In this document: in pieces, positions 3,001 to 6,000 of the stretch
How positions within the stretch are numbered: position 1 is the stretch's first letter
How the letters are laid out: each line of letters opens with the position of its first letter
IMG/VR virus record: IMGVR_UViG_2737471857_000014
Span: 1 to 13,106 of that record
Reading direction: 5' to 3' (one strand)
Source of the DNA: a virus
Lineage: Duplodnaviria; Heunggongvirae; Uroviricota; Caudoviricetes
Length of the DNA stretch: 13,106 bases
Position numbers: made by a program

Positions 3001-6000
3001 ATTAAAAAAATAAGCACCCTCATAATAAAACCTCACCACCTATTAACAGCACAGCATAAAAATTGTCATTGAAATTATTTATCTTTTTCTCTTATTGGCC
3101 CAAAGCACGCTTCTTCTTTACAAGTAGAGTATCCCACTAAAGCATTACTTGTAAGAGATTTTTTAAAGTCTTCATTATTCCATACATTTGGCTCATAATA
3201 TAAACGAATTCGTTCGCCAGTCGTATAAAAATACATAGTCTGTAAATACAGAGTATCAAATGACGGATGCCATTTAGAATCATTCCTTAACAAACAAGCT
3301 TTTATTGTTTTGTCTTCACTCTGTTCAGCCTCTAAACAGAAATATGGAGAAGAATTAAATTGCCCTGTGTGGATCTTATTAATCATCACTTCAGAATACA
3401 TTCCTTCAGTTTTATCACCAGTCCATTCAGCTTTTGCTGGGCTGGTAAAAACTAACATAGACAAGAAGAGTGCAGACCAAACCTTCATAGTTACTCCATA
3501 ATATATTCACAAATATATGAGAGACCTCACCAGTTGGTTCATGTTAATTAACTATGCTTAACATGTACCCGTACATTTTCGATGGTAAATTTTCTAAAAT
3601 CCATCCATTGGCAATAGCATTATCAGCATGATTTCAACTACGCCTTAAGCTTTCAGAAATAGCTTTCTATCTTTAATTTCCGTTACCGCTCTGCGGGCTT
3701 TTTACCAAAAATACCAAACATCGTAACGTTCCTTCGGGGGGAGCAAACTCCCGGGGGCGATATGCCCACAGAGAAAGTCACGCTGACCACTCCGCCCCTC
3801 TGAAAGGCTATTTAGTTGATATGCGCCAGGCGTAGCGCGGATACAAAAAAGCTCGCAAAAGCGAGCCTGAAAAAATAAGTGTAATGCGTTGTACTGGATT
3901 CGAACCAGTGACCGATTGCTTAGAAGGCAATTGCTCTGTCCGGCTGAGCTAACAACGCTGAATAACGATAATGGACCGCCATCGAGGACCCGCTCCCCGC
4001 GCAACCAGCTTCGAAGGCTGGTGCTCTTTCCTGATGAGCTAATGGCGGTATGTGCTGGTGGCCCTTGCTGGATTTGAACCAGCGACCTGGCGATTATGAG
4101 TCGCTCGCTCTCACCACTGAGCTAAAGGGCCGAATCGAAAATAATAATCAGATGAAATCAAAAATCAAGCCCTTGCATAGATACATATCTGTCTGGCGGG
4201 AGGCCATAATAGCGGTGAAATACAGATATAAAGTAGGACCTACTTGAATAACCGCACTTTTCTGCTACAGCCTGTCCATATCCATATCGGGAACATAGCA
4301 TATTTACAGCAACCCGCATCCGTTCTTCAAGTAATAAACCACTGAAGCTGAGACCTTCACCCTTGAGTTTTTTCTTTAACAAACTCTCACTCATATGCAG
4401 CTGTAGAGCAATCGCACCAAGCGTCCAGCTTGATGATATATCTGTTTGAATTATCGCTCTGACTTTGGTGCTTATACTGGATAAACATCCACTTAAAAAT
4501 AATGACATCCGTTCATCTGATTCAAACAGCGACAGGCACGCCATCATAAGAAACATATCTGTGGTCTCTCCGGAAAATCTCTGGCCAGTAATTAAAGCCG
4601 CAGCCAACGCAGGATTGTTGGGTTCCAGCCACAGGTAAAGCGGAATGTCAGTCAGACGAGTCCTCGTCAGCTTATGCTGACTTTCCAGATATTGACTTAC
4701 GACGGATTCACTTATATCGACAATTTTAACTTTGCCATAATGCATGAGGAAAAGCGCCCTGATGCATTTGGTGGCCAGAACGACTGAGCCGGGCTTAAGT
4801 GACAACGTATCCTTTTCAAGAAAAATATTAATTGGGGAGCAAACCATGATAACTGAACAGACAACAGCCATTATAATTTTACTTTAATTAGCAATTGGTT
4901 AGTTTAATTATAGCCCCACATCAACACATGAGCAAAGGACTGACAGGTGCCGCTAACACCCACCAGCCTCCCATTACCGCAAATGAAAAAAACCATCACT
5001 GCGGAAGGCGTCTGTAACAACCGAACTGATAATCTGCCAGACCCGCCATAACAAGCTGAGTCAGTATTAACTGGCAGCGTTCGCGTGAAAGGTAAGTATT
5101 CTGCGCAATTTCCCCGACGGTCGCCGGTTCGGTGACACTTAATTCATTAAACACCACTCTGGCAGTTTCGGTCATATCCTGCTGTTTTAGCATGCCTTTT
5201 TCCCTTTTCTGGTTTACGTGACATACAAATAACTCTTGTCGAAAAAGCCAGCAAGCTGAAAGACCGGTATTCGCAACCACCAGCGCGTTTAACGTCCTGC
5301 GCCGTTTTTCAGGTATAAAAAAAACCCGCATAAAGCGGGCTCTTTCAAATGTCCATGTCTGCTATTCGCCTCGCGGTGCAGCTTTGCGAAGCGTAGCTGA
5401 ATTGAAACAGTTTATGGCTAAAAATACAAGATTTTTTTCTAAAACTGCATAAGCCTTACCACCAACCAGAAATTCTCTTCGTGCAACAACAAACGCCCTC
5501 CAGACTCTAAGCGTCAGTAAAAGAAAATGCATCCCGCATCAGTGGATATAGAATAAACTCAGCTATTCTCAGCCACATATCTATACGATTGCGGCATGTT
5601 GCATAGCACCACTCAGGGTGAACCTCATTCAACAATTCAGCCATTTTTCGTTTACTCATCCCCCGTCCTTCGTACCGTTGCCGCAGGATATCAATCAATC
5701 CAGGATAACTTGCGAGCGCTTTACTTATCACCCCATCAATGCGTAACGCCTCTGCATCAGTACAGTGAGACAGCCAGCTCTTCTGTCTGCCAGCGATCAT
5801 CTCTCGCAAGAATGCTTCCAGTTCAGGTTTATCAATCCCTGATTCCCTGATTTTGCGCATGGCTTCATTGATCGCGGTTTTTGTCAGTTTTTTGGATGCC
5901 AGCAACTGATTGAACATATTTCCTGTTTTGCCACCACCTATATACGACCAACGCCCCCACATACGCAGTTTCCCCTGGAGCCAGACACTTTCCAGCGTTT

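Follow-up and report, generated by a model that had tools for sequence, protein, structure and literature searches.

A tRNA-Arg(UCG) gene with a non-canonical T-loop in an Escherichia coli toxin prophage is probably a weakened or decaying argN allele

Can a tRNA gene that has lost three conserved bases of its T-loop still supply a working tRNA, or is it on the way to becoming a pseudogene? The question is raised by the middle gene of a tRNA trio in positions 1 to 13,106 of the IMG/VR virus record IMGVR_UViG_2737471857_000014. This stretch of 13,106 nucleotides, referred to here as the window, comes from a lambdoid E. coli prophage, of which it forms the late region; the genes lie on the minus strand. 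In the middle gene, which specifies a tRNA-Arg(UCG), the T-loop reads AGCGGGU, and a first-pass annotation of the window had proposed that this gene is either a degenerate copy of argN or a functional but unusual tRNA. Our data favor the degenerate copy. We put at roughly 0.6 the probability that the gene is a young, hypomorphic or decaying allele of argN on its way to a pseudogene; the functional option is weakened by the low covariance score of the gene, its rarity, and its restriction to one lineage.

Results

A tRNA gene with three lesions in its T-loop

ARAGORN called a minus-strand tRNA-Arg gene with the anticodon tcg, its limits being exactly 3972..4048. The Rfam tRNA model RF00005, which has a gathering score of 29 bits, matched 4048..3975 with 44.0 bits (E = 9.3e-7). 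The gene and its relevant parts are as follows.

3972..4048, minus strand: argN-type tRNA-Arg(UCG), 77 nucleotides, encoded CCA, T-loop AGCGGGU (ARAGORN, Rfam)
3983..3999, minus strand: whole T-arm, with a CGGGG/CCUCG stem that includes G51-U63 and G53-C61
3988..3994, minus strand: T-loop A54 G55 C56 G57 G58 G59 U60 (from the sequence; ACCCGCT on the plus strand)
4012..4014, minus strand: anticodon UCG, U34 C35 G36 (from the sequence and ARAGORN)

The minus-strand sequence of the gene, from 5' to 3', reads CCGCCAU UA GCUC AUCAGGAAA GAGC A CCAGC CUUCGAA GCUGG UUGCG CGGGG AGCGGGU CCUCG AUGGCGG U CCA. All 21 cloverleaf pairs, in stems of 7, 4, 5, and 5 base pairs, are Watson-Crick or G-U, with no mismatches, and the gene ends in U CCA. 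The cleanly folding acceptor, D, and anticodon arms and the encoded CCA reported in the first-pass annotation are thus borne out. The G-U pair noted in the T-stem is also present, as G51-U63, though the same pair occurs in the commonest canonical argN alleles (CGGGG/CCUCG) and therefore forms no part of the anomaly.

The anomaly lies in the loop itself. A census of conserved positions returned exactly three lesions, U54>A, U55>G, and A58>G, in agreement with the earlier description of the T-loop as non-canonical. Only C56 and R57 (here G57) conform to the consensus U54-U55-C56-R57-A58, which is not matched as a whole, and U8, A14, G18, G19, A21, and U33 carry no lesion. The identity elements for arginyl-tRNA synthetase are A20, C35, and G or U at position 36; as read from the sequence, A20 (in the D-loop AUCAGGAAA), C35, and G36 are all in place. 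The minimum-energy structure computed with RNAfold is the cloverleaf, with the T-arm predicted to reach 6 base pairs through an extra A54-U60 pair that leaves a loop of 5 nucleotides. Alternative registers of the T-arm were also considered; moving the 5' strand by one base created a G-G clash, and the canonical register was kept.

In the genomes of strain RM9088 and of the OkiPb isolates, the identical sequence is annotated by PGAP as tRNA-Arg without a pseudo flag, the missing flag being only an indirect proxy for a pseudogene check. The idea that the gene is an artefact, either an error of sequencing or assembly or a tRNA-like fold that arose by chance, has a negligible probability and is refuted by the Rfam E value of 9.3e-7, by clear homology to annotated argN genes, and by the identical sequence in one IMG/VR contig and in 11 complete genomes, each assembled independently. 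Judged by its sequence and fold, the middle tRNA is a genuine tRNA gene.

The middle tRNA is an allele of argN

Two further tRNA genes flank the middle one.

4056..4131, minus strand: ileZ-type tRNA with a CAU anticodon (PGAP: tRNA-Ile), fully canonical, first of the trio (ARAGORN; Rfam 72.5 bits)
3885..3958, minus strand: argO-type tRNA-Arg(UCU), anticodon tct, third of the trio (ARAGORN; Rfam 71.4 bits)

The ileZ copy is identical to the majority allele, that of 47 of 58 loci. The gene between the two has the UCG anticodon, shows homology to argN, and occupies the middle slot of an ileZ-argN-argO trio that is located in the late region upstream of toxin genes. A 700-nucleotide region of the window matches 289 phage records, mostly Shiga toxin (Stx) 2 converting phages, and of 5,426 complete E. 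coli genomes, 3,061 have a match to the 301-nucleotide tRNA region. In phage Stx2a_1447 (AP012536), the trio is annotated as ileZ, argN, and argO and lies directly upstream of stx2AB. Its argN, which has the canonical T-loop UUCGAGC, is identical to the window copy at 68 of 77 positions (88%). Because of this synteny and identity, the middle tRNA is, as had been suggested at first, an allele of argN, the tRNA-Arg(UCG) of lambdoid and Stx-type E. coli prophages.

The AGCGGGU loop is not a normal variant of argN

The 44.0 bits of the window copy lie 12-14 bits under canonical argN alleles (56.0 and 58.4 bits) and 27-28 bits under the flanking tRNAs. Alleles with the loops GUCGAGU and GGCGGGU score 50.8 and 45.3 bits, respectively, and argN alleles with a scrambled anticodon arm give no match to the Rfam tRNA model.

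The range of T-loops in this slot was surveyed in 120 IMG/VR loci gathered with the 3' end of ileZ as the anchor, a choice that leaves the content of the middle slot unbiased. The loci with an intact Arg-UCG anticodon arm were distributed as follows.

T-loop UUCGAGU: 25 loci
T-loop UUCGGGU: 19 loci
T-loop UUCAAGU: 12 loci
T-loop GUCGAGU: 2 loci
T-loop CUCGGGU: 2-3 loci
T-loop UUCGAGC: 1 locus
T-loop UUCGAGA: 1 locus
T-loop GGCGGGU: 1 locus
T-loop AGCGGGU: 0 loci

Targeted scans found the T-arm of the window in one IMG/VR contig and its allele in no metagenome contig. Any loop of the form NGCGGGU with an intact Arg arm was present in two IMG/VR contigs, whereas UUCRRGU occupied this frame in at least 120. 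The scan of species-representative genomes yielded two argN-family loci, both canonical, a number that gives no view across genera. Among 5,426 complete E. coli genomes, the exact 91-nucleotide stretch was found in 11, which corresponds to 11 of the 1,028 with an argN match, and the next-best matches were 95.5% identical. According to the first-pass annotation, a covariance score typical of functional tRNAs together with the same loop in many phages would point to a normal variant; we observed neither, with 44.0 bits for the score and 11 of 1,028 genomes for the loop. Because the score is low and the loop is confined to one prophage lineage, AGCGGGU is, by these measures, not a normal argN variant.

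These data also bear on the view that the gene specifies a fully functional elongator tRNA-Arg(UCG) with an alternative, riboswitch-like T-loop that is neutral or slightly advantageous. Such a loop would be closed by an A54-G58 pair, with G55 at motif position 2 and C56-G19 kept. We consider this view doubtful but worth weighing. It is consistent with the intact stems, identity elements, and CCA, with a score over the gathering threshold and the tRNA annotation by ARAGORN and PGAP, with the G at position 2 and the variable 1-5 closing pairs that are common in non-tRNA T-loops, and with the spread of the allele to isolates from crows in the USA and cattle in Japan. However, no other lineage has kept the loop, and among the matches listed, U54U55 is retained by more than 98% of the intact-arm alleles. 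The related loops GGCGGGU and GCGGGU occur almost only in copies with a destroyed anticodon arm.

A single, recent origin

The 11 carrier genomes come from two continents (USA crow and Japan cattle isolates), and all of the carriers share one prophage and its SubB-SubA-SubB cargo. The window is 99.5-99.7% identical over 8-10 kb to the prophages of RM9088, of Okinawa bovine isolates, and of one IMG/VR contig. All carriers agree in every base of 1445..4885, the part with the toxin-tRNA module, and the differences between the carriers and the window consist of three recombination patches and about five single-nucleotide polymorphisms. Because the carriers share one prophage and an identical toxin-tRNA module, we conclude that the AGCGGGU allele arose a single time, recently, and then travelled with the clonal prophage. 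Hitch-hiking on a young clonal toxin prophage explains the two-continent spread that could otherwise be credited to a working tRNA. No further decay was seen among the carriers, 1445..4885 being invariant, in a lineage too young for a test of purifying selection or of a neutral rate.

The closest canonical alleles (loci L101 and L038) differ from the window copy at 4 of 77 nucleotides (73/77 identical); positions 54, 55, and 58 of the T-loop account for three of the four. G58 is a common polymorphism in the argN family, and the lineage-specific event was therefore essentially a tandem UU>AG change. The D-loop AUCAGGAAA is also found with canonical T-loops, and we detected no compensating D-loop change. 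The loss of the contact between G18 and pseudouridine 55 (Psi55) is therefore uncompensated, which again speaks against a fully functional tRNA.

The three patches are located at 7252..7514, 193..228, and 9733..9804, contain 11-21 mismatches each, and look like recombination tracts. Past about 8.7-9.8 kb, the gene content of the relatives diverges, and an IS1 element lies nearby in RM9088.

Several sources of the TT>AG change were considered and rejected. A local template was sought in the form of a second GGGGAGCGGGTC close by, direct or inverted; the sole other match has 2 mismatches, which is chance level. A hairpin-templated (quasipalindrome) mutation would explain U54A through the A54-U60 pair but predicts C rather than G at position 55, making it a partial explanation at best. 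Integrase sites often begin in the T-loop of a tRNA gene and extend through its 3' end; here an integration scar was rejected, as the 3' T-stem, the acceptor strand, and the downstream spacer match canonical alleles.

The argN slot is eroding

Nucleotide diversity is 0.072 for argN, 0.015 for argO, 0.021 for ileZ, and 0.19 for the spacer, which places argN at about 4-5 times its neighbors. The 58 loci contain 32 distinct alleles of argN, 16 of argO, and 8 of ileZ. Lesion-free sequences make up 29 of 58 argN alleles with an intact anticodon arm, compared with 48 of 58 for argO. U54A, U55G, and A58G are absent from the 29 of 58 canonical alleles, and the window copy thus shows a loss of universally conserved nucleotides, as used to recognize pseudogenes. 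A frequent group of argN alleles has A6-A67 and A52-C62 mismatches. In a covariation test on 33 argN alleles, none of the 21 stem pairs showed a compensatory change and pair-breaking alleles were common; at such low divergence, the zero does not count against a tRNA fold and shows only that changes are one-sided or pair-breaking. These patterns indicate that argN is under visibly weaker constraint than ileZ and argO.

Remnants with a scrambled anticodon arm, called by neither ARAGORN nor Rfam, occupy the slot at 27 of 121 loci, and 25 of these 27 have the T-loop GCGGGU, GGCGGGU, or CCGGGU. A missing U54U55 combined with G55 and G58 is thus chiefly a feature of dead argN copies.

The middle slot between ileZ and argO is a mosaic hot-spot across the IMG/VR loci L003-L122. 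Three loci have tRNAs that fuse the 5' part of argN to the 3' part of argO (L021, L048, and L094), three have internal deletions (L014, L067, and L075), and at L030 a G36U change turns argN into a second UCU tRNA. At about 19 loci, the slot holds a tRNA-Lys(UUU) with an acceptor stem nearly identical to that of argN, often followed by Thr and Gly tRNAs.

A second lesion in the same lineage

In this prophage, argO has a canonical body but has lost its encoded CCA. The gene ends in ...ACAACGCA, followed by UUACAC (discriminator A, then UUA) at 3880..3884. At about 100 loci elsewhere, argO ends in GCCA or ACCA, rarely in GCUA, and the GCC>AUU change is unique to this prophage lineage. As read from the sequence, argO would here need 3' trimming and the CCA-adding enzyme. 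This second lesion in the lineage supports the decay of argN.

The argO lesion also bears on the proposal that the middle gene makes a tRNA-like RNA selected for a non-decoding role, as a decoy or to escape nucleases or modification enzymes that recognize T54-Psi55. The E479 CdiA-CT of Burkholderia pseudomallei, a toxin of contact-dependent growth inhibition (CDI), cuts tRNA between T54 and Psi55. In the middle tRNA, the changes fall exactly at 54/55 with all else preserved, and a CDI tRNA-nuclease effector has been reported in the carrier RM9088 (PMC10562709); both points are circumstantial. The change does not recur in independent lineages, no gene is associated with it, the argN slot erodes in many different ways, and the unrelated loss of the argO CCA fits decay better than design. 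We therefore regard a non-decoding role as very improbable.

Discussion

How a decaying argN allele might arise and persist

We propose that the allele was formed in a young lineage by a tandem U54A and U55G change on a G58 background. The bases lost are those that build the tRNA elbow (G18-Psi55) and the U54-A58 pair within the loop (PMC7609411 and textbook knowledge). The tRNA would accordingly lack the U54-A58 reverse-Hoogsteen pair, the Psi55-G18 contact, and the substrates of TrmA and TruB, and would retain G19-C56, G53-C61, four stems, A20, C35, and the CCA end. It would share a transcript with ileZ and argO, at least upon prophage induction, and would probably fold into the cloverleaf, with an elbow that is weakened or rearranged, possibly into a 6-base-pair T-stem with a pentaloop. 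The most likely outcome would be lower stability, poorer processing or use, and a lower steady-state level. Such a loss would be tolerated because argN is dispensable: the tRNAs of the host decode CGA and CGG, which the toxin cassette barely uses. We infer reduced function of the AGCGGGU allele; its identity as argN, derived state, rarity, single lineage, and low score, like the erosion of argN, are read directly from the comparisons above. Among the papers searched, those on argN, ileZ, and argO, on prophage tRNA expression, and on phage tRNA T-loops held nothing relevant and no expression data.

Several observations weigh against decay. All stems, G18G19, C56, R57, G53-C61, A20, C35, and the CCA are intact, and no further decay has accumulated, in a lineage too young for this to be informative. 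The middle tRNA lies above the Rfam gathering score, is called by ARAGORN, and is annotated as tRNA-Arg by PGAP with no pseudo flag. G58 by itself occurs in about a third of argN alleles that otherwise look intact. E. coli tolerates the loss of TrmA and TruB. Nazarenko, Harrington, and Uhlenbeck reportedly found in 1994, with E. coli tRNA-Phe in vitro, that many conserved bases of the T- and D-loops are inessential for EF-Tu binding and elongation. G is common at motif position 2 of non-tRNA T-loops, which also accept other 1-5 closing pairs (bioRxiv 10.1101/2022.12.26.521914), and by analogy AGCGG could still form a T-loop-like fold with G19-C56 kept. Finally, the sampled IMG/VR and RefSeq loci are not phylogenetically independent, many being clonal, and the erosion counts exceed the number of independent events.

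Taken as a whole, that the AGCGGGU allele is a working elongator tRNA seems to us unlikely. Were it one, it would be a natural tRNA of a bacterial system with purines at 54/55 and G58, a riboswitch-type T-loop at the elbow, and neither T54 nor Psi55, and enzymes or toxins that recognize the T-Psi-C loop might fail to act on it. It would also offer a natural test case, in E. coli, of the extent to which a tRNA depends on the T-loop consensus.

Toxin cassette and codon demand

Downstream of the trio, the place of stxAB is taken by genes for a different AB5 toxin.

1561..3488, minus strand: SubB-like / SubA-like / SubB-like AB5 toxin cassette, in place of stxAB, downstream of the trio (RefSeq annotation, PDB SubA/SubB matches)
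3488..3075, minus strand: first SubB-like gene, 137 amino acids
3023..1992, minus strand: SubA-like S8 protease, 343 amino acids; 525 bits and roughly 70% identity to SubA of PDB entry 2iy9
1971..1561, minus strand: second SubB-like gene, 45% identical to the first

The first-pass annotation mentioned neither the minus strand nor this subtilase-type cargo instead of Stx. A phage-borne, diverged SubAB with two different B subunits in the stx slot is more noteworthy than the tRNA itself.

From its anticodon, UCG, argN would read CGA and probably CGG. The arginine tRNAs of E. coli K-12 are argQVYZ (ICG), argX (CCG), argU (UCU), and argW (CCU), and to our knowledge the UCG anticodon is absent from the chromosomal tRNA set of E. 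coli. The 619 codons of the cassette include 23 AUA, 12 AGA/AGG, and only 4 CGA/CGG. Hence, ileZ and argO are useful to the cassette, and argN hardly so.

Surroundings of the trio

The trio lies downstream of a gene of the DUF1133 family (about 5508..6050) that, from its position, looks like a putative Q-type late antiterminator. A helix-turn-helix gene is also among the late-region regulatory genes before the trio. Two signals flank the tRNA genes.

4141..4168, minus strand: promoter-like site, sigma-70-like, TTGATT-16-TATTAT, about 10 nucleotides upstream of ileZ (consensus match only)
3849..3868, minus strand: strong terminator-like G+C hairpin with a T-run after it, immediately past argO (consensus match only)

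The trio may be a transcription unit of its own, between the late-region regulatory genes and the toxin genes.

A ParD/ParE (RelE-family) toxin-antitoxin pair is encoded at about 7889..8451 on the plus strand, between replication and Nin-region genes. The small RNA family STnc100 (RF02076) had no match at the gathering score within the window; one to three copies, at 109-161 bits, lie shortly downstream of the tRNA cluster in related prophages at L005, L010 (3121..3798), L013, L031, and L085.

Comparison with known systems

For biology at large, the finding matters little. For annotation, it means that the argN of ileZ-argN-argO trios is often eroded and that a "tRNA-Arg" in a lambdoid prophage is no proof of extra CGA/CGG decoding.

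Compared with argN of Stx2 phages, the window copy has the same position in the cluster, the same 77-nucleotide frame, acceptor stem, anticodon arm, and U73 discriminator, and an encoded CCA. It differs in the T-loop, which is UUCGAGC/U or UUCAAGU in the references and AGCGGGU here, and in the cargo of its prophage, a subtilase-type AB5 toxin rather than Stx. With the eroded argN remnants it shares the slot, the loss of U54U55, and the G at 55 and 58, whereas most remnants also lack the anticodon arm and the window copy retains all stems. At locus L085, where the Arg arm is intact, the loop is GGCGGGU and the score, 45.3 bits, is nearly that of the window copy.

The eukaryotic initiator tRNA-Met (A54, A60) and the staphylococcal cell-wall tRNA-Gly lack the T-Psi-C consensus. 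So do tRNA-Pyl and the type II mitochondrial tRNAs, which are likewise natural (PMC7609411). These molecules demonstrate that neither U54 nor the complete T-loop consensus is required for a tRNA to work, but they have co-adapted D-loops or partner proteins and are clade-wide, whereas here the D-loop is unchanged and the allele belongs to one young lineage. The T-loops of the flavin mononucleotide and cobalamin riboswitches and of large RNAs resemble AGCGGGU in having G at motif position 2 (tRNA position 55) and a position 3 that forms a long-range Watson-Crick pair, as C56 would with G19. In contrast, they dock into different receptors.

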